Below, one piece after another: positions 697 to 16,008 of a stretch of DNA of 25,019 nt. Position numbers and translations under genes: made by a program. Within the stretch, counting starts at the first letter, position 1; each line of letters opens with the position of its first letter. The notes beneath the pieces are model-generated. The model was given only the letters and a program-made list of their open reading frames with translations, had not been told where the DNA came from and ran no database searches. Origin of the DNA: an uncultured Gammaproteobacteria bacterium (GTDB lineage: Bacteria > Patescibacteriota > Patescibacteriia > 2-01-FULL-39-33); contig CAYIIA010000001.1 in NCBI GenBank assembly GCA_964363385.1, positions 1 to 25,019 of the forward strand. The letters are read 5' to 3'.

Positions 697-725
697 ATAA
701 TAACCTCTCCATAAAAGATTGTCAA
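697..725 (-). promoter_or_regulatory. Sigma70-type promoter TTGACA-17-TATTAT, back-to-back with the RNHCP gene promoter
   Basis: Minus strand: TTGACA atcttttatggagaggt TATTAT. Plus strand: TTGTCA(719-724)-17-TATTCT(742-747). Confidence 0.65.
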
Positions 726-757
726 AGGAGAAAAATAGTGGTATTCTAAAGGAAAAT

Positions 758-1084
758 ATGCCTAAGAAATTCAGCAAAAAAGAAGAGGATTTTGTCTGTG
801 AGCACTGCGGTTTTGAAGTGAAAGGAACCGGGTACACCAACCATTGCCCCAAGTGCCTTTGGTCCAAGCATGTGGATGTTAATCCTGGAGACCGTTTGGA
901 GCCTTGCGGCGGGATGATGAAGCCGGTGGATTTGTATTTAAAAAAACAAGACTGGGTTCTGGTCCATGAGTGCGAGAGTTGCAGTTTAGTCAGGAAAAAT
1001 AGACTGGACGAACAGGACGACTTCAATGAAGTTTTGAGATTGGAAAAGAAGATTAATGAGGGGAAGGTTAAGGGGATGAGATAA
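758..1084 (+). CDS. RNHCP domain Zn-ribbon protein (108 aa)
   Basis: FVCEHCG...YTNHCPKCLWSKHVD..PGDR...CGGMM...HECESC. ATG 758 is preferred over the TTG start at 719 because of the promoter position. Confidence 0.85.
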   Translation: MPKKFSKKEEDFVCEHCGFEVKGTGYTNHCPKCLWSKHVDVNPGDRLEPCGGMMKPVDLYLKKQDWVLVHECESCSLVRKNRLDEQDDFNEVLRLEKKINEGKVKGMR

Positions 1085-1310: not shown

Positions 1311-3119
1311 ATGAATAGAGTCAAAGAAATAAGGAATGTTTTTAAGGGCGTAAAAAGTGGCAATTTTCAAATTTTGTCAATGCGTATTTTTTCTGAAGAA
1401 AATTTGGCAATTCTTTCGGTTTATATAAACAATATTAAAGATAGGTCGTTGTTGGTGGACAATTTAATTAGTGGTTTATCTAGTTGTGACAGAAATTATG
1501 ATTGGAATGTGGGAAGTATTTTACAACATTTGGATGTTGATTTAATAATTTCTTCTTTGCAGAAAATTAAATTATCCGCTTTGTATAATTCTATCGGTTT
1601 AGTCTGGGTATTGGGCGAATTTAAAAATATAAACCCGGTCATAATTGATTTTTTATATGCCGTTATTAATAATGCGGAGGAATCGGATGCGTGGTGGAGA
1701 GCAGCTTTTTCTTTGGAAAAATTGGGCATTGATGAAGCGGTAAATTTACTAAAAATGTCTTTAAAGCATAAAAAAATAAAAAACCTTGATTTTTACTTAA
1801 AAAGAATGAATGACAAAAGGTCTATTATCAACATTTTAATACTTAGTAATATAGATAATATAGAAAAAAGCATATATCCGAAAATCAAAGAGATATTTTT
1901 AAAAACAAATAATTGCGAAACCATAATAAATTGTTGTTGGCTGATAGGAAGGTTAAAATTAATTGATGACGAAATTTATAAAAAATTGTTATTATTGATT
2001 AATCATAATAATTACGAATTAAAGTATTATACTTTTTTTGCCTTGCAAAATAATGCGACAGAAAATTTAAGGCCAATCATGGAAAAATCCCTTTTTGATA
2101 AAGATCCTTTGATTAGAAAGATGGCCGCTAGGGGTTTATTTAGTATTGGCAATGAAAACTCTCTTAATATTTTGGAAGATGCCCTATACAAAGAAGAAGA
2201 ACAATCCGTTGTTTCCGAAATCAGTAAAGCGATTTATTTTTTAAAAAATCCCTTAGATAGGAGTTTATCGTTAATAGAAATAAAATCATGTAAAAGTGAA
2301 AATGGCATGATTTCTGATGAAAGCGACAAATGGTATAGCGATCCGGCCATATACAATATATTTTCAGAAGCGGAAGATCCTGAAAATATCTGTTTTAGTT
2401 TGATTAGCAAAAAGATCAAACATAAAAAAATATCTAATCCAATAGATTTGGCGACGGGAACGGGGAGAATGATGTGGCAGATTATCGATAATATAGAGTT
2501 TGATGGCAATCTTTATGGTGTGGATTCAAGCAAAAACATGTGCGAATATATCAGTAAGCGGATTAAGAGAGAAAGAAAGTATACTAGCAATGTAAAAGTG
2601 ATAACATCTTCAATAAATAAATTATCTAAGAAAATTTCAGTTAAGTCTGATTTCATAATAAGCTCTTTCGGTTTTCCGAGTAAAATTAGCGATTATTCTT
2701 TGTGTATTCAAGAATTAAGATCGGTTTATTCACTATTATCCAATGATGGAATTTTTTTAACGATCGGTTGGGATGAGACTTTTAATGATGAATTGAGTAA
2801 AATGTGGTTTAAATATATACCAGATAAGATTTATGCCTCTAATTTTGAAGAATGGAGAAAAAAAAGAATGGAATTAATTAATTCTCCTCGCAATTGCGGC
2901 TTGAGCTGGTTTAAGAAAGGAATCAGTGCTCCTTTGCAATTTTCTTCTTTGAAGGAATCGGCGCATGTTATGGGATATCTTTTTGGTCGAGATGCCGCTC
3001 AATATGTGGTAAAAAGCGGAAAAATTGAATGGATTATGTCGATGGGCATAACATTAAATACAAAATCGGATTTGAAAAAAATATTAAAAAAACATGAAGG
3101 AAATAGAAATTTTAGTTAA
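1311..3119 (+). CDS. HEAT/PBS-lyase-like repeat protein fused to a C-terminal class I SAM-dependent methyltransferase (602 aa)
   Basis: Helical repeats WRAAFSLEKLG, CCWLIGRL and DPLIRKMAARGLFSIG; MTase motif I IDLATGTG, then YGVDSS; visibly AT-rich. Confidence 0.7.
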   Translation: MNRVKEIRNVFKGVKSGNFQILSMRIFSEENLAILSVYINNIKDRSLLVDNLISGLSSCDRNYDWNVGSILQHLDVDLIISSLQKIKLSALYNSIGLVWVLGEFKNINPVIIDFLYAVINNAEESDAWWRAAFSLEKLGIDEAVNLLKMSLKHKKIKNLDFYLKRMNDKRSIINILILSNIDNIEKSIYPKIKEIFLKTNNCETIINCCWLIGRLKLIDDEIYKKLLLLINHNNYELKYYTFFALQNNATENLRPIMEKSLFDKDPLIRKMAARGLFSIGNENSLNILEDALYKEEEQSVVSEISKAIYFLKNPLDRSLSLIEIKSCKSENGMISDESDKWYSDPAIYNIFSEAEDPENICFSLISKKIKHKKISNPIDLATGTGRMMWQIIDNIEFDGNLYGVDSSKNMCEYISKRIKRERKYTSNVKVITSSINKLSKKISVKSDFIISSFGFPSKISDYSLCIQELRSVYSLLSNDGIFLTIGWDETFNDELSKMWFKYIPDKIYASNFEEWRKKRMELINSPRNCGLSWFKKGISAPLQFSSLKESAHVMGYLFGRDAAQYVVKSGKIEWIMSMGITLNTKSDLKKILKKHEGNRNFS

Positions 3120-3663
3120 GGTTTTGGACAATAAACAAAAAGCTTTGTCAGTTTTAGATTCTTACAAAAAGGTTGGAATTAAAAAAATCACGGACACCTA
3201 TTTTTTTAATTCTGAACGCAACGAACTGCAACCGGATCAATCGGGGCGGCTTACCAGGTGTTTAAGATTGAGAAAAAAAGAAAATAAGAATTTTTTAGCT
3301 TATAAAATAGATTATTTTAATGAAAAGGGCGTTTGGCTGTATTCTGATGAACACGAAACCGAAGTTGCCGATTTTGAAACCATGATGGTTATTTTACGCC
3401 ATTTAGGATTAGAGATTCTAGTGGAAATAAAAAATAAGAAGCATATTTACCTGACGGATAAATATGAGATTGTCTTAGAAGAAGTGGAAAATCTCGGATT
3501 GTTTTTAGAAGTGGAATGTCTTGGCCAGGTTGAAGATGATAAAGTTTTAGATGTTAAAAATGAAATTTGGAAATTCATTAAATCTTTAAAAATGGTTACG
3601 GAAGAAGAGTCGAACGCCGGCAAACCGGAATTGATGATAAGAAAAGGATTGGGGAAGTTTTAA
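3094..3663 (+). CDS. CYTH (class IV adenylate cyclase/thiamine triphosphatase-like) domain protein
   Basis: MKEIEI..., DTYF, LRLRKK, EHETEV, IVLEEVENLGLFLEVE. Overlaps the upstream gene by 26 nt. Confidence 0.85.
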   Translation: MKEIEILVKVLDNKQKALSVLDSYKKVGIKKITDTYFFNSERNELQPDQSGRLTRCLRLRKKENKNFLAYKIDYFNEKGVWLYSDEHETEVADFETMMVILRHLGLEILVEIKNKKHIYLTDKYEIVLEEVENLGLFLEVECLGQVEDDKVLDVKNEIWKFIKSLKMVTEEESNAGKPELMIRKGLGKF

Positions 3664-3825
3664 GTTTTATTGATCCGGAAATTCGGGAAAGTGAAGTTTT
3701 AAAGACTGATAAAATCCCTTGAACCGAAACCTAATTTAACGGAAAAGATTTTCTCTGAGAGGTTTTGCAAGAAGTATGGTTTTAGATTTAATAAGAGTGT
3801 TTTGGCTAGGATTATTAAATAATAG
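3664..3825 (+). pseudogene. 3' relic (last ~52 codons) of a paralogue of the 5402-6025 peptidase
   Basis: Reads VLLIRKFGKVKF*RLIKSLEPKPNLTEKIFSERFCKKYGF... versus DLLIEKFGKAKFLRLIKSLEPKPNLTENIFSARFCKIYGF. By manual count 127/162 nt are identical to 5867-6028. In-frame TAA at 3700. Confidence 0.85.
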
Positions 3826-3842
3826 AAAAATAAGCGGATTTT

Positions 3843-3899
3843 AAAAAAAATAACGGCCGGCCTTCTCCCTCACGCGTGTCGTGAAAGAGAAGGCCGGCC
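3843..3899 (-). terminator. Intrinsic terminator of the FadL-like gene
   Basis: 13-bp stem GGCCGGCCTTCTC/GAGAAGGCCGGCC with an inner TCACG/CGTGA stem, then a U8 tract on the minus strand. Confidence 0.8.
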
Positions 3900-3906
3900 T
3901 TTGCCG

Positions 3907-5073
3907 TTAGAATTTCCAATCGGCTCCGAAGCCAATCGTTACTGTCTTAGCCTTGAACTCGTTGCCCCGGCTGTCTTGCATGTCACCCCAGCCGTAGATG
4001 ACGTGAGTGTTGAGAGTCCAGTCGTCGTTCACTTTCTGGTGGAAACCGAGAGCCACATCCCAACCCGTGACGTCCGGCGTGAGTTGGCTTACAGTGCCCT
4101 CCGGTACGGCCGCATTCTGGTAGCCTATGCCTCCGCTTAGCCAGAGGTTTTCCTGAATCTCCTTGCGGAAACCGACATGGACACTGTAGTTGTCCCGCCA
4201 GTCCAGCAATTTGCCCTTGGTAAGCGGCAGATCATGGAAACTTAGTTTGACATCGTCCACGGTCTGGCTGTAGCCGTACCAATGAAGGGAGGCTGCCAGA
4301 AGCAATTTTTTGTTCGCTTGGCAAGACACGCTTAGACTAGTCATGTCCGGGAATGTGAACGAACTATAGAAGCCGTCCTTGAGAGACAACAGACCAAGAG
4401 GACCCGAGATCTTTGTGTTGCCTTCCAGATGCGCTTTTAATTCGCTCATGTATGACAGGCCGAGGGTCAACTTCTCTGTCTGCCACATCACTCCAACGTT
4501 TGCTCCCAGTCCTAAGCCCGTCGCTTCGCTGTCCGTGAGGATTGGGAGATATACGTTCTTAATGTCGAAGGGAGCCAGATACTTGAATTGGCACCACCCG
4601 ACATTCAATCCCGCGCCCACAGACAGATGGTCTGTCAGTCGCAGCGAGATCGCCGGCGTGATGTTCGTCAGCGAGATCAGGGTTTCGCTTTTGAAGAATC
4701 CTTTGGACCAGTCCGCATCAAAGGCAGCGCCCATTCCGTAAGGTGTCATAATCCCGATGCCCCAAACCGCATCTTTGTTTATGGACTTAGTCAGTCCAAG
4801 AAGAGGCATGGGGTAGACCATGTCATCCCGGGATCCATGCGTACCCAACCGATTTTTAATCTTGAATTTCGGTTGGATCGCCTGGACACCGAAATCCAGA
4901 GAATCTTCCAAATTAATGATCCCGGCCGGGTTATCCCTAAATAGAATCATATCGTCCGCATAGGCTCCGCTCATACCGCCATGACGGCTGCCAATACCGC
5001 CCACCGGATTGAGACCGCCAGCCCAGGCCGGCAGAGTCATAACGAGTAGAATTGTAAAGAACAGTTTTCTCAT
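3907..5073 (-). CDS. FadL/OmpP1/TodX-family outer-membrane beta-barrel transporter (388 aa)
   Basis: Signal peptide MRKLFFTILLVMTLPAWA; family N-terminal pattern GSRHGGMSGA...DNPAGI; YGMGAAF; amphipathic strands; C-terminal ...GFGADWKF beta-signal; GGAGG SD. Confidence 0.85.
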   Translation of the reverse strand: MRKLFFTILLVMTLPAWAGGLNPVGGIGSRHGGMSGAYADDMILFRDNPAGIINLEDSLDFGVQAIQPKFKIKNRLGTHGSRDDMVYPMPLLGLTKSINKDAVWGIGIMTPYGMGAAFDADWSKGFFKSETLISLTNITPAISLRLTDHLSVGAGLNVGWCQFKYLAPFDIKNVYLPILTDSEATGLGLGANVGVMWQTEKLTLGLSYMSELKAHLEGNTKISGPLGLLSLKDGFYSSFTFPDMTSLSVSCQANKKLLLAASLHWYGYSQTVDDVKLSFHDLPLTKGKLLDWRDNYSVHVGFRKEIQENLWLSGGIGYQNAAVPEGTVSQLTPDVTGWDVALGFHQKVNDDWTLNTHVIYGWGDMQDSRGNEFKAKTVTIGFGADWKF

Positions 5074-5141
5074 TTCCTTATCCTCCGTCCCTTTTAGGGA
5101 CTGTTTGTGTCAGCCAAAAACAACCTTTTCTGTTGCCATCA

Positions 5142-5201
5142 TTCTACCATATTTATCTAAATTAGTCAAGACTTGACAATTGTATTATATTAAGGTAATA
5201 T
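5142..5201. promoter_or_regulatory. Divergent sigma70 promoters: minus TTGACT-17-TAGAAT (porin) and plus TTGACA(5173-5178)-17-TAATAT(5196-5201) (RNA unit C)
   Basis: Both hexamer pairs have 17-nt spacers. Confidence 0.6.
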
Positions 5202-5206
5202 ACAGG

Positions 5207-5364
5207 TATTCATTTTATGTTTCCTTCATAAGTGGAGTAGCCCCCGGGGAAGAGGGCAAGTAGTCGTGAGGCACGCATTAGATGTACGACATCTCAATCC
5301 GTCGACCAAAGCGACATCCCCAAACAGCACCACCGACCGGGAACGCCCAGTCGGTCTTTTATTT
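5207..5364 (+). ncRNA. Candidate small RNA unit C (multi-hairpin, own promoter and terminator)
   Basis: Hairpins CTTCA/TGGAG, GCCC/GGGC, CGTG/CACG, AGATGT/ACATCT and GTCG/CGAC. Terminator ACCGAC.GGG/CCC.GTCGGT (5332-5355) plus U-rich tract. Shares TAGTCGTG-N3-CACG and AACAGC with units A and B. Confidence 0.5.
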
Positions 5365-5401
5365 AAAGCATAGCGATAAGCCTAAAACAATAATTAAGTT
5401 T

Positions 5402-6025
5402 ATGAAGCAATTTTTAACTGTTGGATTAGCAAAAAAAGATAAGAAATTTGAGAGTTTTTTGGAGGCAACAAAAAAAGAGTTGACCGCTTTTTTTAACTCA
5501 AGCGTTCCTGAACCTTTGATTTTTCTATTAGAGTCTCGGTTGGAATTGGATCTGATCTGGGGACAAAAAACCGAGAAGTGGGTTGTCGGAGGCACAAAGA
5601 ATGGATCTATCTTTATTTTAGATCCTAAGGTTTATACTCAGCAATCAAGCCATAAAGACAAGAATGATTTTTGGAAAACATTGAAACACGAGTATTGCCA
5701 TATATATTTCAGATACATCACTAAAGGTGTCAATCCTCTTTGGCTGCATGAAGGATTGGCCTCATATTTGGCTGATCAGAAGAAAATCTGTGATGATCCT
5801 TTGGATGTTTTTTCTTATTTTGATAAGCCAGGAAAAGGACTGTATAATGCCGGTTATTTCTGGGTTGATTTGTTGATTGAAAAATTCGGGAAAGCGAAGT
5901 TTTTAAGATTGATAAAATCCCTTGAACCGAAGCCTAATTTAACCGAAAATATCTTCTCCGCAAGATTTTGTAAGATATATGGCTTTAAATTCGATAAGAA
6001 TGCTCTTACTAAACTCATAAAGTAA
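5402..6025 (+). CDS. Peptidase MA-like HExxH metalloprotein (207 aa)
   Basis: LKHEYCHIY followed by WLHEGLASYLA (gluzincin-like). Start placed at ATG 5402, after the RNA C terminator. Confidence 0.75.
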   Translation: MKQFLTVGLAKKDKKFESFLEATKKELTAFFNSSVPEPLIFLLESRLELDLIWGQKTEKWVVGGTKNGSIFILDPKVYTQQSSHKDKNDFWKTLKHEYCHIYFRYITKGVNPLWLHEGLASYLADQKKICDDPLDVFSYFDKPGKGLYNAGYFWVDLLIEKFGKAKFLRLIKSLEPKPNLTENIFSARFCKIYGFKFDKNALTKLIK

Positions 6026-6028
6026 TAG

Positions 6029-6070
6029 AAAAAACGGGTCAAAATATTTGTGTATATTGCCCGTTTTTTG
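6029..6070. terminator. Intrinsic terminator after the peptidase gene
   Basis: AAAAAACGGG...CCCGTTTTTT inverted repeat. Confidence 0.7.
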
Positions 6071-10181: not shown

Positions 10182-10263
10182 CAAAATAGGTTTTGTGATA
10201 TTATTATCTGAAGCATTAATGAAGGTTTTGGAGCACGTTTACAACCAAGAAAGGAGGCAGATT

Positions 10264-11226
10264 ATGCCGCACAGCCATCAGAAAAAGCTCTTGCGGCGTC
10301 TGTCGCCGTTTGAGCTGGAAAAGGAAGTCGACAGAAGGAAATCCCGGATTCATTTGTTCCAAGTCAGGGATGAAATCATCCAGGATGCGCCTGAAATCTT
10401 CGAATGTGAAGAGTTCAAAAGAGTCAAAAAGCATCCTAGCGTGAGTTGGTTCATCCGCAGTTTCTGGCAATGGAACGAGTATGCCCTGCCGATCATGAGT
10501 TCGTCTTCACATCCGAATTTCGGGATGCAGGACAAACTTTGTGAATTGGCCCACCCTTTCCTGAGAGGGACAGTCGTGGATCTAGGTTGCGGTGCTGGCG
10601 ATTTCTATAACCGTTTGTTCAAGGTCAATGGCCGGAAGATCGAAAAAATCTTCGCGGTGGATATTGACTGGGAGGCGTTAGTCCTGATGCCTCACAAGCT
10701 CAGAGAAGTCGGTTACCGAGGCAAGGTCGGCCTGATCCAAGGATCTACCATGTCTCGTCTGCCGGTTTGGAATGAAACCGCGGATTGCGTGCTTTCGAGC
10801 ATCGGAGGCGTCACCTATGCCGGCTGGTGGTTTGAGAACGACCGCCTTGTCTGCGAGGGTAGGGAGGCATTGTCCAAGTGTTTGAAAGAAGCCAACCGCG
10901 TTTTGAAGCTTGGCGGACATCTGGCATTCTCGAGCCTGAAGCCGAACCCGAATTTTGAGATGGTGCTGGCTGATTCGTTGATCTGGCCGGTAACGCATCT
11001 GAAGTTTGATGTGTTTTGGAGAGTTGCGAGGTACGGGTTCCACATCAAAAAAATCTCTCAGTTTCTCCATGAGGCTGAGAAAAGGCAGAATGCCCATTAC
11101 CTTTCTCTGGAAGAATGGGATTCCTGCCTGAAAGAAGCCGGGTTCGAGGTCGTTGTTTCGACTCTGGGCGAGTGTTACGCTAAGCAAGGCGTGGTAGTCG
11201 TTGCCAGGAAAACGCGCAATGTCTAG
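10264..11226 (+). CDS. Class I SAM-dependent methyltransferase with N-terminal extension (320 aa)
   Basis: AAGGAGG SD before ATG 10264; VVDLGCGAG; FAVDID; EANRVLKLGG. Confidence 0.85.
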   Translation: MPHSHQKKLLRRLSPFELEKEVDRRKSRIHLFQVRDEIIQDAPEIFECEEFKRVKKHPSVSWFIRSFWQWNEYALPIMSSSSHPNFGMQDKLCELAHPFLRGTVVDLGCGAGDFYNRLFKVNGRKIEKIFAVDIDWEALVLMPHKLREVGYRGKVGLIQGSTMSRLPVWNETADCVLSSIGGVTYAGWWFENDRLVCEGREALSKCLKEANRVLKLGGHLAFSSLKPNPNFEMVLADSLIWPVTHLKFDVFWRVARYGFHIKKISQFLHEAEKRQNAHYLSLEEWDSCLKEAGFEVVVSTLGECYAKQGVVVVARKTRNV

Positions 11227-11333: not shown

Positions 11334-12977
11334 ATGAATTTTTTTGCTTTATCTGGTTTAACCAACGGCTTAATAGCTTTAATGTTTGGGTTTTTTGTGG
11401 TTTATGAAAACCGTAAGAATGTTATTAATATAACTTGCGGATTATTAACATTAGCAACGGCTGTATGGTCTTTAAGTTATTGGCTTTGGCTCGGTTTTGG
11501 GTCTAGTCATGATTTGGCATTGTTTTTTGTAAGACTATTGTCGTTAGGGTCCACCTGGATTCCAATTTTTTATTTGCATTGGATTCTGTCTTTGCTCGGC
11601 CTACAGAAAAGAAAAAAATTCTTATTACTTTTTGGCTACGTAATCACGGTATTACTTAGTATATTCGGTTTTTCAGATCTTTTCGTATCCGGTGTCCAGC
11701 AGAAAATGTATTTTAATTTTTGGCCGAATGCAGGGATATTATATTCTTTTTATATTTTTATTTTTTATGGCGGCATTGTGGTTTATTGCCTTTATCTTTT
11801 AACTAGAGCGGCCATAAAAAGCAAAGGCGCTGAAAGAAGCCAATTATTATATGTCATTGCCGGTACTATTGTCGGATTTGGCGGTGGAGCAACGAATTTT
11901 TTGCTATGGTATAATATTATGATTCCCCCTTATGGAAACTTTTTAGTTGGCCTTTATCCGATAATTTTTACCCATGCCGTTACGGAGCATAGATTTATGG
12001 GGATTAAGGTAGCGACTACAAAGGTTTTTTCAGTGATGATAATAGTGATTTCTTTTATAGAACTTTTAATTTCAAGGTCTCTGCAGGAATTGGTTTTTAG
12101 ATTTTTTATTTTTGTCATAGTGGCATTTTTCGCTTTTTCGCTTTTCCGGTCTGTTTTAATTGAGATAAGACGCCGCGAAGAAGTAGAACGCCTGGCCAAG
12201 AAACTCCAGAAAGCCACCAATGATCTCAAAGCCGCCAACAAAGAACTCCAGAGATTGGATGAAGCCAAATCCGAATTCCTTTCCATTGCCTCCCACCAAT
12301 TAAGGACGCCTCTGACGATCATCAAAGGATACATTTCCATGATGGTAGAAGGCAGTTATGGTTCCATCTCGAACAAAGTGAAAGAAAACTTGGGGAAAAT
12401 GTATATCGCTTCCGAACGTTTAATCTCTTTGGTGGAGACTCTGCTTAACATCTCCCGCATCGAAGCCGGCAGATTGGAATTCAATCTGCAGCCCACGGAT
12501 TTTTCCGAAGTAGTCGGATCAATAGTGGAAGACTTCCAGCAGAAAGCCAAAGAAAAGAATTTGAAGCTGGGATTTTATCCGGAAAAGAACCTGCCCAAAG
12601 TCATGACTGACGGAGAAAAGATCAAGGAAGTCATTTCCAATTTCTTGGATAATTCCATCAAGTACACGGAAAAAGGAGAGGTCACGGTCAGCCTCCACCA
12701 AGAGAGCCAGTCCGTGGTGTTTTCCTGCCAGGATACAGGCAGGGGCGTGGAACCGGAAGATCTGCCGAGGCTGTTCAATAAGTTCGTCCGGGGCAAGGGT
12801 ATGATGCAGATACACACTGAAGGCACAGGCCTAGGATTGTATTTTGGAAGAATGGTCATTGAAAACATGGGTGGAAGGATCTGGGCGGAGAGTCCGGGCA
12901 AGAACCAGGGATCCAAATTTTCCTTTTCTCTGCCTCTGGCAAACAAGAAAGAGGCTAAGAAGATAAGTCCCGCCTAA
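11334..12977 (+). CDS. Membrane sensor histidine kinase (N-terminal 7TM/HisKA_7TM-like input, HisKA, HATPase)
   Basis: Multiple TM segments; H-box SIASHQLRTPLT; N-box NFLDNSIKYT; G-boxes DTGRG and GTGLGL. Confidence 0.92.
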   Translation: MNFFALSGLTNGLIALMFGFFVVYENRKNVINITCGLLTLATAVWSLSYWLWLGFGSSHDLALFFVRLLSLGSTWIPIFYLHWILSLLGLQKRKKFLLLFGYVITVLLSIFGFSDLFVSGVQQKMYFNFWPNAGILYSFYIFIFYGGIVVYCLYLLTRAAIKSKGAERSQLLYVIAGTIVGFGGGATNFLLWYNIMIPPYGNFLVGLYPIIFTHAVTEHRFMGIKVATTKVFSVMIIVISFIELLISRSLQELVFRFFIFVIVAFFAFSLFRSVLIEIRRREEVERLAKKLQKATNDLKAANKELQRLDEAKSEFLSIASHQLRTPLTIIKGYISMMVEGSYGSISNKVKENLGKMYIASERLISLVETLLNISRIEAGRLEFNLQPTDFSEVVGSIVEDFQQKAKEKNLKLGFYPEKNLPKVMTDGEKIKEVISNFLDNSIKYTEKGEVTVSLHQESQSVVFSCQDTGRGVEPEDLPRLFNKFVRGKGMMQIHTEGTGLGLYFGRMVIENMGGRIWAESPGKNQGSKFSFSLPLANKKEAKKISPA

Positions 12978-14077: not shown

Positions 14078-15820
14078 TTATTCTCTATTCTTAATCTCTT
14101 CCAAAATCTCTTTGACAAACTCTCCCGCTTTCTTAGCTCCCAAGTCTCCAACGCCTCTCTTCCTCACCGAAACCGTATCCTCGGATTTTTCCTTCTCTCC
14201 CACCACTAGGATGTACGGCGTCTTTTCCTTTTCCGCGTTCCTAATCCTCTTGCCCAAGGATTCATTGCTGTCATCGAGCTCCACCCGGATATTATTCTTT
14301 TCAAAAATTTCCTTAACCTTTATTCCGTAGTCATTGAACTTTTCCGAAACCGGGATGATCTTTACCTGGTTGGGAGAAAGCCAGGTCGGGAAAGCGCCGG
14401 CGTAGCGTTCAATTAGGAGCGCCATGGTCCTTTCGTAAGCGCCGATGGAAGAGCGGTGGATGACAATGGGCCTGACTTCCTGGCCCTTCTCGTCAATGTA
14501 CGCCATATCGAATTTTTCCGGCAGAGCGAAGTCTATCTGCACTGTAATAATAGTATCTTCCTTGCCGAAAACATTCTTCATCTGGATATCCAGCTTCGGC
14601 CCGTAGAAAGCCGCTTCTCCCTCAGCCTCCTCGTATTTCATCTTGTTCTTGTCCAGGATTTTTTTCAGAGTCTTTTCCGACTGCTCCCAAGCTTTGGGAT
14701 TGTCTATGTATTTCCCCTTGTTGTTCTTGGGATCCCATTTGGAAAAGCGGTACCAGAAGTCGGAGAGCCCCAGAGTTTTCAAGATGTACTGTATCAGATC
14801 CAGGACGCCCTCGAATTCTTCTTCCAATTGATCCATCCGGCAGATGAGGTGGCCTTCGGAAAGGGTGAATTGCCGAAGCCGGATGAGGCCGTGCATCTCG
14901 CCGGAAGATTCATTCCGGAAAAGCGTGGAAGTTTCGTTGTAACGGATAGGCAGATCCCGATAGCTTCTTTTCTCGGCTTTGTAGATCTGGAATTGGAATG
15001 GGCAGGTCATGGGCCTTAGCGCCATTTCTTCGCCTGACGCGTCCAGGACGAACATGCCGTCCCGGTAGTGGTCCCAGTGCCCGGAAACTTTGTACAGATC
15101 GCTCTTGGCCAGATACGGCGTCATAGTCAGCTGGTAGCCTCTTTTCTTTTCTTCGTCCTCTATCCATCTCTGCAAAATCTGTTTAATAATGCTCCCCTTG
15201 GGAGTGAGTAAAGGCAGTCCCTGGCCGATGAGATCTGAGGTGATGAACAGCCCCAATTCCTTTCCTAATTTGTTGTGGTCCCTTTTTTCCGCTTCTTGGA
15301 GCATTTTTAAGTATTCCGCCAATTCTTCTTTGGTTCCGAAAGCCGTGCCATAGATCCTTTGGAGCATGGCGTTTTTTTCACTGCCTTTCCAGTAAGCCCC
15401 GGCCACTCTAAGCAGTTTGAAATTTCCCAATTCTTTAGTGGAAGAAACATGAGGTCCTCGGCAGAGATCTTCAAAATCCCCGACTTGGTAAAAGGAAACT
15501 TTTTTCTCGCCTTGGTTTTTTAAATCCTCGACCAATTCCAATTTGTACGGCTGGTCTTTTAGTTTATTTTCAGCTTCTTCAATTTTGACCTCCTTTTTAT
15601 TGAATTCCAGATTCTTTTTAATAATCTCTTTCATCTTCTGTTCAATCTTATCTAAATCTTCCAAGGAAAAAGTCTCGCCGTTTAAGTCAAAGTCATAATA
15701 AAATCCGTCGTCAATAGTCGGCCCGATGCCGAATTTGACGTCCTTAAAGAGCTCTTTGACGGCGTATGCCAGGATATGGCTCGTCGAGTGCCGGATAATG
15801 TCCAGTTTTTCTTTTTCCAT
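14078..15820 (-). CDS. thrS: Threonine--tRNA ligase (580 aa, lacking the N-terminal TGS domain)
   Basis: IRHSTSHILA, DLCRGPH, RPMTCP, GLIRLRQF, EAAFYGPKLD, IHRSSIGAYER. Start at ATG 15820, downstream of the T-box terminator. Confidence 0.97.
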   Translation of the reverse strand: MEKEKLDIIRHSTSHILAYAVKELFKDVKFGIGPTIDDGFYYDFDLNGETFSLEDLDKIEQKMKEIIKKNLEFNKKEVKIEEAENKLKDQPYKLELVEDLKNQGEKKVSFYQVGDFEDLCRGPHVSSTKELGNFKLLRVAGAYWKGSEKNAMLQRIYGTAFGTKEELAEYLKMLQEAEKRDHNKLGKELGLFITSDLIGQGLPLLTPKGSIIKQILQRWIEDEEKKRGYQLTMTPYLAKSDLYKVSGHWDHYRDGMFVLDASGEEMALRPMTCPFQFQIYKAEKRSYRDLPIRYNETSTLFRNESSGEMHGLIRLRQFTLSEGHLICRMDQLEEEFEGVLDLIQYILKTLGLSDFWYRFSKWDPKNNKGKYIDNPKAWEQSEKTLKKILDKNKMKYEEAEGEAAFYGPKLDIQMKNVFGKEDTIITVQIDFALPEKFDMAYIDEKGQEVRPIVIHRSSIGAYERTMALLIERYAGAFPTWLSPNQVKIIPVSEKFNDYGIKVKEIFEKNNIRVELDDSNESLGKRIRNAEKEKTPYILVVGEKEKSEDTVSVRKRGVGDLGAKKAGEFVKEILEEIKNRE

Positions 15821-15836
15821 ATATTTTGGGTTATTT

Positions 15837-16008
15837 AAAAAACCTCTCATCTCAAAACACATCTTTCGGATATATTTTGGGACGAGAGGATTTCCCGCGG
15901 TTCCACCCACATTCTTTGCCTGACGGGCAAAGCGCTTTTTGTCTGAACTTAGCCTGGTTTGAAGGGCCTCATTTAGAGGCAGGCGGTTGGTAGCCGTCTC
16001 AATCGTTT
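15837..16008 (-). promoter_or_regulatory. T-box riboswitch leader of thrS (transcriptional terminator type)
   Basis: The minus strand has AATGTGGGTGGAACCGCG...CTCGTCCC (T-box antiterminator), preceded by the stem III-like CTTTGCC/GGCAAAG and followed by a long terminator (15889-15843, GAAA loop) plus U6. Confidence 0.88.

Follow-up and report, generated by a model that had tools for sequence, protein, structure and literature searches.

By the textbook view, a transmembrane β-barrel like FadL requires BamA and an outer membrane, whereas the bacteria of the candidate phyla radiation (CPR, or Patescibacteria) are thought to have neither and to depend on others for their lipids. Described members of the FadL family include Escherichia coli FadL, known from structures (PDB 1T16 and 1T1L) and from mutants; the channels TodX, TbuX and CymD for monoaromatic hydrocarbons (PDB 3BS0, 3BRY and 6Z34); and BamG, the FadL-like subunit of the Bacteroidota BAM complex (PDB 9HIV, 9N2D and 9HJM). 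Certain homologues of FadL let signal molecules with long chains through. In Vibrio cholerae, VolA and FadL together serve lysolipid scavenging, by which the acyl chains of exogenous lysophospholipids are used (PMC3656444).

Groundwater CPR cells viewed by cryo-TEM display a surface layer and no outer membrane; they attach themselves to hosts that are Gram-negative and are unable to synthesize fatty acids (PMC7906910). The lineage studied here is not among the cells imaged in that work. CPR lipids probably come from other cells, and lysolipids are enriched in them (PMC7242380).

Here, we analyze a FadL/TodX-family barrel gene in a stretch of 25,019 nucleotides, referred to as the window, which makes up the entire contig C1 of a Patescibacteria genome. 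Within the literature covered, to which most subscription journals did not belong, we found no work linking FadL-type barrels to Patescibacteria or CPR; names for some of these barrel proteins can already be found in public annotations.

The barrel gene, its product and its host genome

The barrel gene (product P0001) occupies positions 3907–5073 on the reverse strand and is a stop-free reading frame of 388 amino acids. Its product matches the Pfam family Toluene_X (PF03349; OMPP1/FadL/TodX) with 129.6 bits and an E-value of 1.4e-37, the family cut-off being 29.7 bits. The match covers residues 26–363 and profile positions 22–384 of 421. In a genome scan, where it scored 127.9 bits, the gene was the sole Toluene_X member. 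A first-pass annotation of the window had described an intact, full-length barrel gene, which the uninterrupted frame and the Pfam score bear out, and had furnished it with a promoter, a Shine–Dalgarno sequence, a signal peptide, a C-terminal WKF and a terminator, each of which we could locate in the sequence. All of these lie on the reverse strand. The promoter (5141–5169) is of the σ70 type with an extended −10 element (TTGACT-17-(TG)TAGAAT) and matches the consensus at 10 of 12 positions; it stands back-to-back with a forward-strand promoter at 5173–5201. A Shine–Dalgarno sequence, read as GGAGGA (5081–5086), precedes the ATG by 7 nt. Eight nucleotides past the stop codon lies an intrinsic terminator (3845–3899) with a 20-bp stem containing 13 GC pairs, followed by a T run.

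The first 18 residues (5020–5073) form a Sec-type signal peptide consisting of MRK, a hydrophobic core and A-W-A, after which cleavage is predicted; Ala18 and Gly20 are invariant in an alignment of the Patescibacteria clade. Residues 19–57 (4903–5019) correspond to the N-terminal hatch, or plug, with an NPA motif at 4924–4932. The last β-strand (3910–3939) ends in G-A-D-W-K-F, a β-signal-like C-terminus of the form aromatic-x-Phe. A terminal Phe or Trp together with an aromatic residue at −3 is found in about 19 of 22 clade members, and Phe388 is nearly invariant.

The structure predicted by AlphaFold (AF2) from an alignment of 30 homologues has a mean pLDDT of 90.5 and a pTM of 0.87; the only part of low confidence (pLDDT below 50) comprises residues 1–21 of the signal-peptide region. 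In a Foldseek search with this model, the best 24 PDB matches were all FadL, TodX, TbuX or CymD, headed by E. coli FadL at a TMq of 0.82 and an E-value of 4.6e-23. Its neighbors in the ESM Atlas are FadL clusters at TM-scores of 0.87–0.90. Before the first strand, residues 22–57 of the model are helical rather than strand-forming, with short helices at 29–33, 44–47 and 49–54. Asn48 and Pro49 are invariant in the clade and Ala50 is nearly so; the clade profile aligns this NPA motif, and the A-D-D ahead of it, with the NPA and ADDA motifs in the hatch of E. coli FadL. Gly105, Gly107 and Pro111 are invariant in the strand that aligns to strand S3 of E. coli FadL, with Gly107 falling on Ser100. 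The presence of Pro111 within this strand suggests a kink, S3 being the site of lateral opening in FadL. Members of the clade measure 381–404 residues versus 423–451 for other homologues, and have deletions after residues 76, 171 and 369; judging by strand parity, the deleted segments would be outer loops.

By its Pfam score, its fold, the hatch with its NPA motif, the signal peptide and the C-terminal aromatic residue, the barrel is a member of the FadL/TodX/OmpP1 family. It scores 49.7 bits against the NCBIfam FadL equivalog model NF007988, far below the cut-off of 585, and the residue aligned to Asp348 of E. coli FadL is a glutamine. Together, these two features suggest that substrate handling may differ from that of FadL. 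The barrel is not a FadL equivalog; we place it in a subfamily of FadL/TodX channels that is specific to Patescibacteria.

The host genome comprises 691,712 bp on 85 contigs that average about 45% GC, with a completeness of 88% and a contamination of 0.39%. The sequencing runs containing the sequence are groundwater metagenomes. The genome shares its GTDB family with PEZY01000005.1 and JAUSEE01, both Candidatus Buchananbacteria of the Patescibacteria group. Its threonyl-tRNA synthetase is 50–67% identical to those of four family members with syntenic loci. The assignment to the Patescibacteria made from the letters alone thus agrees with a 0.69 Mb genome, with the Buchananbacteria family mates and with the housekeeping genes on the barrel's own contig, which include thrS, argS, ileS, ruvA, rpoB and a Mur ligase gene.

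Inheritance, selection and integrity of the locus

Matches to the barrel protein occur in 23 of 35 genomes of the order, representing 12 of its 20 genera, and in 22 of the 33 other members of its own family; in an even sample of the whole phylum, 2 of 401 genomes contain one. PF03349 itself was found in 18 of 401 genomes of a class sample, among them 9 of 11 from the barrel's own family and five from one other family. All of the approximately 25 matches to the protein are open reading frames. In a maximum-likelihood tree, all Patescibacteria copies form one clade with a support of 100/98, within which the genera group together and which takes in a protein of Portnoybacteria as well as one copy belonging to a distant family. 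The closest relatives of the barrel are all Patescibacteria. A long branch leads to the clade; outside the CPR, its nearest homologues are metagenome proteins, and the structural neighbors in the ESM Atlas come from many diderm phyla. For the least saturated pair of orthologues (G410 and G411), dN is 0.027 and dS is 0.92, giving a ratio of 0.03; the remaining informative pairs have dN/dS ratios of 0.07–0.18. The barrel gene is under strong purifying selection.

The gene order is conserved as well. A series of RNHCP, FadL, variable genes, methyltransferase, seven-transmembrane (7TM) histidine kinase and thrS recurs across genera in independent assemblies, with syntenic contigs from other studies of up to 958 kb. 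In the window, the RNHCP-domain gene lies at 719–1084 on the forward strand (Pfam RNHCP) and provides one anchor of synteny; in relatives it is the immediate neighbor of the barrel gene. Among 16 loci compared from relatives, which represent eight further genera, it adjoins or lies near the barrel gene in 10. The opposite end of the module is marked by a second anchor, the housekeeping gene thrS (14,078–15,910, reverse strand; identified by Pfam). Between them, a forward-strand gene for a UbiE-type SAM methyltransferase (10,195–11,226; Pfam) adjoins the gene for a multi-pass sensor histidine kinase of about seven transmembrane helices (11,334–12,977, forward strand) with HisKA and HATPase_c domains. 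Residues 1–265 of this kinase contain six to seven hydrophobic helices, and its orthologues carry PF16927 (HisKA_7TM). The kinase is found at 15 of 17 FadL loci, including one in a distant family, and is the only near-universal neighbor. A SAM methyltransferase stands beside it at 9 of 17 loci: four relatives have UbiE-type orthologues in the interval from FadL to the kinase, and in other genera a membrane-anchored Methyltransf_20 protein takes the methyltransferase position. In three genera, a 3-hydroxyacyl-CoA dehydrogenase gene lies between methyltransferase and FadL; a CER1-like or acyl-reductase-like gene lies near the barrel in G410 and G411, and an AMP-binding gene is found 6 kb from it in another relative.

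Relatives that lack the barrel keep the backbone of the locus, which indicates loss. The first-pass annotation had considered a recent acquisition from a diderm; the family-wide occurrence, the synteny, the monophyly in the phylogeny that it had called for and the dN/dS ratios of 0.03–0.18, likewise called for, do not support this. The barrel gene is native, vertically inherited and functionally constrained.

The composition of the locus can be reconciled with this. At 52% GC, the gene stands out from flanks of 30–38%, and in all 21 orthologues it is higher in GC than its flanks. Its GC3 of 0.63 places it in the top 2.5% of 529 open reading frames; the neighboring aminoacyl-tRNA synthetase genes have values of 0.58–0.59, and the genome mean is 0.53. 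The genes flanking the barrel in the window (HEAT-methyltransferase, CYTH and peptidase-like) have a GC3 of 0.29–0.38 and are absent from the site in relatives. The first two form an AT-rich cassette (1311–3663, forward strand; GC 0.30 and 0.33, GC3 0.29 and 0.34) that is inserted between the RNHCP and barrel genes, at a position where relatives do not have it. The apparent GC spike is therefore mostly an effect of AT-rich cassettes on both sides, while the GC3 of the barrel itself lies within the native upper tail. The cassettes split the module in the window, and the barrel keeps its own promoter and terminator. We dropped the notion that a high GC3 marks high expression, since the ten genes with the highest GC3 are a mixed set that includes a surface Ig-like protein, sugar enzymes, thymidylate kinase and RelA.

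The GC contrast might also be taken to mean that the gene is a diderm fragment that was mis-assembled or mis-binned, or a very recent horizontal import that has yet to adapt. The public contigs over the locus are short unitigs of similar, low depth (2–6). A check of coverage had been proposed, and no aberrant joints were seen in it; one contig bridges 4870–5281 on the 5′ side of the gene, but none visibly bridges 3696–3907 on the other. Coverage is missing from some bins in some runs, to which we attach no weight. Loose ends at 3778, 5426 and 5820 find no match elsewhere in the window. Since their positions are within the peptidase gene and its relic, we read them as related cassettes in other members of the community, not as mis-joins. 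Moreover, it is the flanks rather than the barrel gene whose GC3 is out of the native range, its closest relatives all lie within the Patescibacteria, and the identical syntenic site with its housekeeping neighbors is found in independent metagenome-assembled genomes from other studies, which counters the possibility of mis-assembly that had been raised. We regard an artefact or an unadapted import as extremely improbable.

Envelope machinery, lipid metabolism and the place of the barrel

Five families of outer-membrane biogenesis were sought in the 35 genomes that represent the order, 30 of them with a completeness of 90% or more, and in 14 diderm controls. Omp85/BamA was found in none of the 35, the barrel's own genome included, and neither were LptD, OEP/TolC, TamB or OmpH/Skp (0/35 each), with 2–7 of the 14 controls positive, depending on the family. 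Omp85 was likewise absent from five FadL-positive genomes of other families. At the genome level, the BAM (Omp85) machinery by which FadL/TodX proteins are assembled thus has no counterpart in the genomes searched. These counts agree with the earlier expectation that genes for outer-membrane biogenesis would be missing, and they speak against a diderm phylum with BamA, the finding that had been named as contradicting the whole picture.

Other traces of an outer membrane are scattered. A secretin occurs in 2 of the 35 genomes and LpxC in 1 of them, about 11 kb from the FadL gene; LpxC is also present on the contig of P0002, the closest homologue. Being found in a single genome of 35, LpxC was rejected as a sign of lipopolysaccharide (LPS) and treated as a sporadic gene. 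A heuristic, non-exhaustive screen of the genome for further barrels, which looked for a signal peptide and an alternating C-terminal strand ending in an aromatic residue, returned none that was convincing; judged by sequence, its four other candidates are ComEC, a lipoprotein and secreted proteins and do not resemble barrels. Three FadL paralogues are present in some genomes.

Fatty-acid synthesis had been expected to be lacking, and the condensing enzyme of FASII, ketoacyl synthase, was indeed found in only one of five genomes checked, which is not the barrel's own. As to the activation and use of fatty acids, DegV/FakB and PlsY were absent from all five genomes; AMP-binding proteins were present in one, ACP in two and PlsC-type proteins in two, and none of these was found in the barrel's own 88%-complete genome. 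The downstream part of a FadL–FadD pathway, an acyl-CoA synthetase or FakAB/PlsXY, thus has no match there.

We consider the most probable explanation to be that the gene encodes a native, selected FadL-type channel for hydrophobic substrates, probably serving to scavenge lipids, that is assembled without BAM. The barrel would be exported by Sec, its signal peptide cleaved after Ala18, and it would then, unaided by BAM, fold into some lipid layer on the surface of the cell, a step in which the trimmed outer loops may help. In a FadL-like manner, a hydrophobic substrate would be bound from the outside, the plug would shift, and the substrate would exit sideways into the membrane by way of a putative kink in strand 3. 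As its most probable substrates we regard fatty acids of long chain length, or else acyl chains and lysolipids, obtained from neighboring or host cells, because fatty-acid synthesis is mostly missing in these bacteria; with the routes for fatty-acid use mostly missing too, the substrate is one that we infer. We favor the cell's own envelope as the location of the barrel over the outer membrane of a host, giving the former a little less than an even chance and holding the latter to be rather doubtful. More tentatively still than the own-envelope location, we propose that an outer-membrane-type barrel free of Omp85 acts as a conduit for acyl lipids in a lipid-auxotrophic CPR bacterium, in its own envelope or in a host outer membrane, with the 7TM kinase and the methyltransferase as partners.

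Several points weigh against the explanation we prefer. Among them are the lack of a known route for free fatty acids in the barrel's own 88%-complete genome and the features hinting at a substrate handling unlike that of FadL. Without an LPS layer, hydrophobic molecules enter a bilayer without a channel, so the benefit to a single-membrane cell is unclear. A barrel inserted into the cell's own membrane from the outside is expected to be upside-down compared with FadL in an outer membrane, and the retained β-signal-like C-terminus would fit a dependence on a BAM-like machine. That last feature would make sense if the barrel were recognized by the BAM of another cell, and one can imagine it as an exported tool that is set into a Gram-negative host's outer membrane where the cells attach, and there it would open a route for host lipids and other hydrophobic compounds to the epibiont, possibly using the host's BAM or inserting spontaneously. 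The attachment of groundwater CPR cells, themselves devoid of an outer membrane, to Gram-negative hosts (PMC7906910) is in keeping with this, as is the lack of any insertase found in the lineage, and the short outer loops would ease insertion. The protein, however, has a plain Sec signal with no delivery system linked to its gene, and the genes conserved alongside its own encode a membrane sensor kinase and cytoplasmic enzymes rather than proteins of secretion or attachment. BAM, moreover, acts from the periplasmic side, beyond the reach of a cell on the outside, and LPS leaflets resist spontaneous insertion. We therefore think such a tool unlikely.

The barrel might instead be the ordinary resident of an unrecognized outer lipid layer, remnant or novel, assembled by means that have no relation to Omp85, Lpt and TolC. 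The scattered secretin and LpxC genes and the FadL paralogues could be seen in this light, and the barrel retains every hallmark of an outer-membrane protein. Yet five independent biogenesis families are each missing from all 35 genomes, the screen yielded no second barrel in the genome, and the groundwater CPR cells that have been imaged, albeit of other lineages, show a surface layer and no outer membrane (PMC7906910). A hidden layer of this kind strikes us as quite improbable. It is also conceivable that the protein is no nutrient channel at all, but provides sensor input or signaling, for example by way of a hydrophobic signal read by the 7TM kinase, or is a surface receptor or an adhesin. 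The near-universal presence of the kinase (15/17 loci), the scarcity of enzymes for fatty-acid activation and the passage of long-chain signals by known FadL homologues would fit such a role. However, lipid genes (3-hydroxyacyl-CoA dehydrogenase, acyl-reductase-like, AMP-binding) are found repeatedly next to the barrel across several genera, the hatch and the NPA transport motif are invariant, and a kinase adjoining a transporter is more simply its regulator, all of which makes this reading very improbable.

A conserved, selected FadL-type barrel in a lineage without BamA is a concrete protein at which these two textbook rules, on barrels and on the CPR, come together. It could reveal BAM-independent assembly, an overlooked envelope layer or a step of lipid acquisition in episymbiosis, and together with the 7TM sensor kinase and the methyltransferase it forms a small module that is open to expression and assay.

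Comparison with known channels

The fold of the barrel can be superimposed on that of BamG at TM-scores of 0.62–0.67. We nevertheless rejected an identification as BamG, since the NCBIfam score is 29.3 bits versus a cut-off of 250 and the genomes do not contain a BamA partner. VolA–FadL offers a precedent for a FadL-type channel that serves the use of lysolipids, which are enriched in CPR cells (PMC7242380). That system spans a true outer membrane and works with a surface lipase and FadD, whereas neither a VolA-like lipase nor FadD was identified here.

TodX, TbuX and CymD share their family with the barrel and match its model at TM-scores of 0.74–0.77; by a slight lead, CymD is the best of all solved chains with the clade profile (E 4.5e-27). 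While these channels sit in hydrocarbon-degradation operons of Pseudomonadota, the neighbors of the barrel gene are the sensor kinase, the methyltransferase and lipid-type dehydrogenases and reductases, and no genes for aromatic catabolism were seen around the barrel loci in the window and the relatives compared.

Compared with E. coli FadL, to which it is about 20% identical, the barrel is some 35–50 residues shorter by virtue of its trimmed outer loops, and its lineage, unlike E. coli, lacks BamA, LptD, TolC, TamB and Skp, with FadD mostly absent as well. What the two proteins have in common is the Pfam family, the plugged-barrel fold (TM 0.82), the hatch with its ADD and NPA motifs, a glycine-rich strand 3, the signal peptide and the C-terminal aromatic residue.

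Immediate surroundings of the barrel gene

A two-gene, AT-rich cassette (window 1311-3663) separates the RNHCP gene (719-1084, plus strand) from the FadL-family barrel gene (3907-5073, minus strand). It consists of a HEAT-repeat/methyltransferase fusion with a GC content of 0.30 and a CYTH protein with a GC content of 0.33. The locus comparison places the RNHCP and barrel genes as immediate neighbours in several relatives, which suggests that this cassette was inserted at a variable hot spot.

Immediately downstream of the terminator of the barrel gene lies a 165-nt relic (3666-3830), which matches positions 5869-6033 at 79% identity and corresponds to the 3' end of a peptidase-like gene (5282-6025); the barrel gene is therefore flanked by a peptidase gene and a fragment thereof. 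In the relative G427, two peptidase-like genes of the same sort are located upstream of its FadL gene. Between 5141 and 5201, promoter-like sites stand back-to-back, one on each strand, and overlap inside a single AT-rich spacer of 60 nt. The minus-strand site is the promoter of the barrel gene, while the plus-strand site, TTGACA-17-TAATAT, points to a small-RNA-like unit and the peptidase-like gene.

FadL loci in relatives

Some Patescibacteria genomes contain three FadL-family matches each, namely G427 (contigs C41, C17, and C35) and G752 (C2, C23, and C12). One of the matches in G752 is interrupted by an internal TGA, and the C12 match is short and only partial. Six kilobases from the FadL gene of G425 lies an AMP-binding (acyl-CoA-synthetase-like) gene (locus L027, 2326-3513; G425:C7:29526-30713), the sole one found across the five genomes checked.

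The contig CAZSPT010000031.1 (loci L026 and L042) shares the RNHCP-FadL-kinase-thrS-argS order. Its MAG is titled 'uncultured Gammaproteobacteria bacterium', yet it is placed in the window's own Patescibacteria family, and its public taxonomic label looks wrong.

LpxC-family and Secretin genes

In G420, an LpxC-family deacetylase gene (216 bits; locus L025, G420:C2:93025-93843) and the FadL gene lie some 11 kb apart; G420 is the only one of the 35 genomes of the order to contain an LpxC-family gene, with none in the remainder. An LpxC-family gene is also present on the 8.9-kb contig encoding P0002, the closest homologue of the barrel protein.

Two genomes of the same Patescibacteria family, both without a FadL gene, contain Secretin-family (PF00263) matches above the cut-off (G401:C11:1442-1921 and G422:C19:4302-4706). 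Secretin is a further outer-membrane-type protein in this BamA-less lineage.
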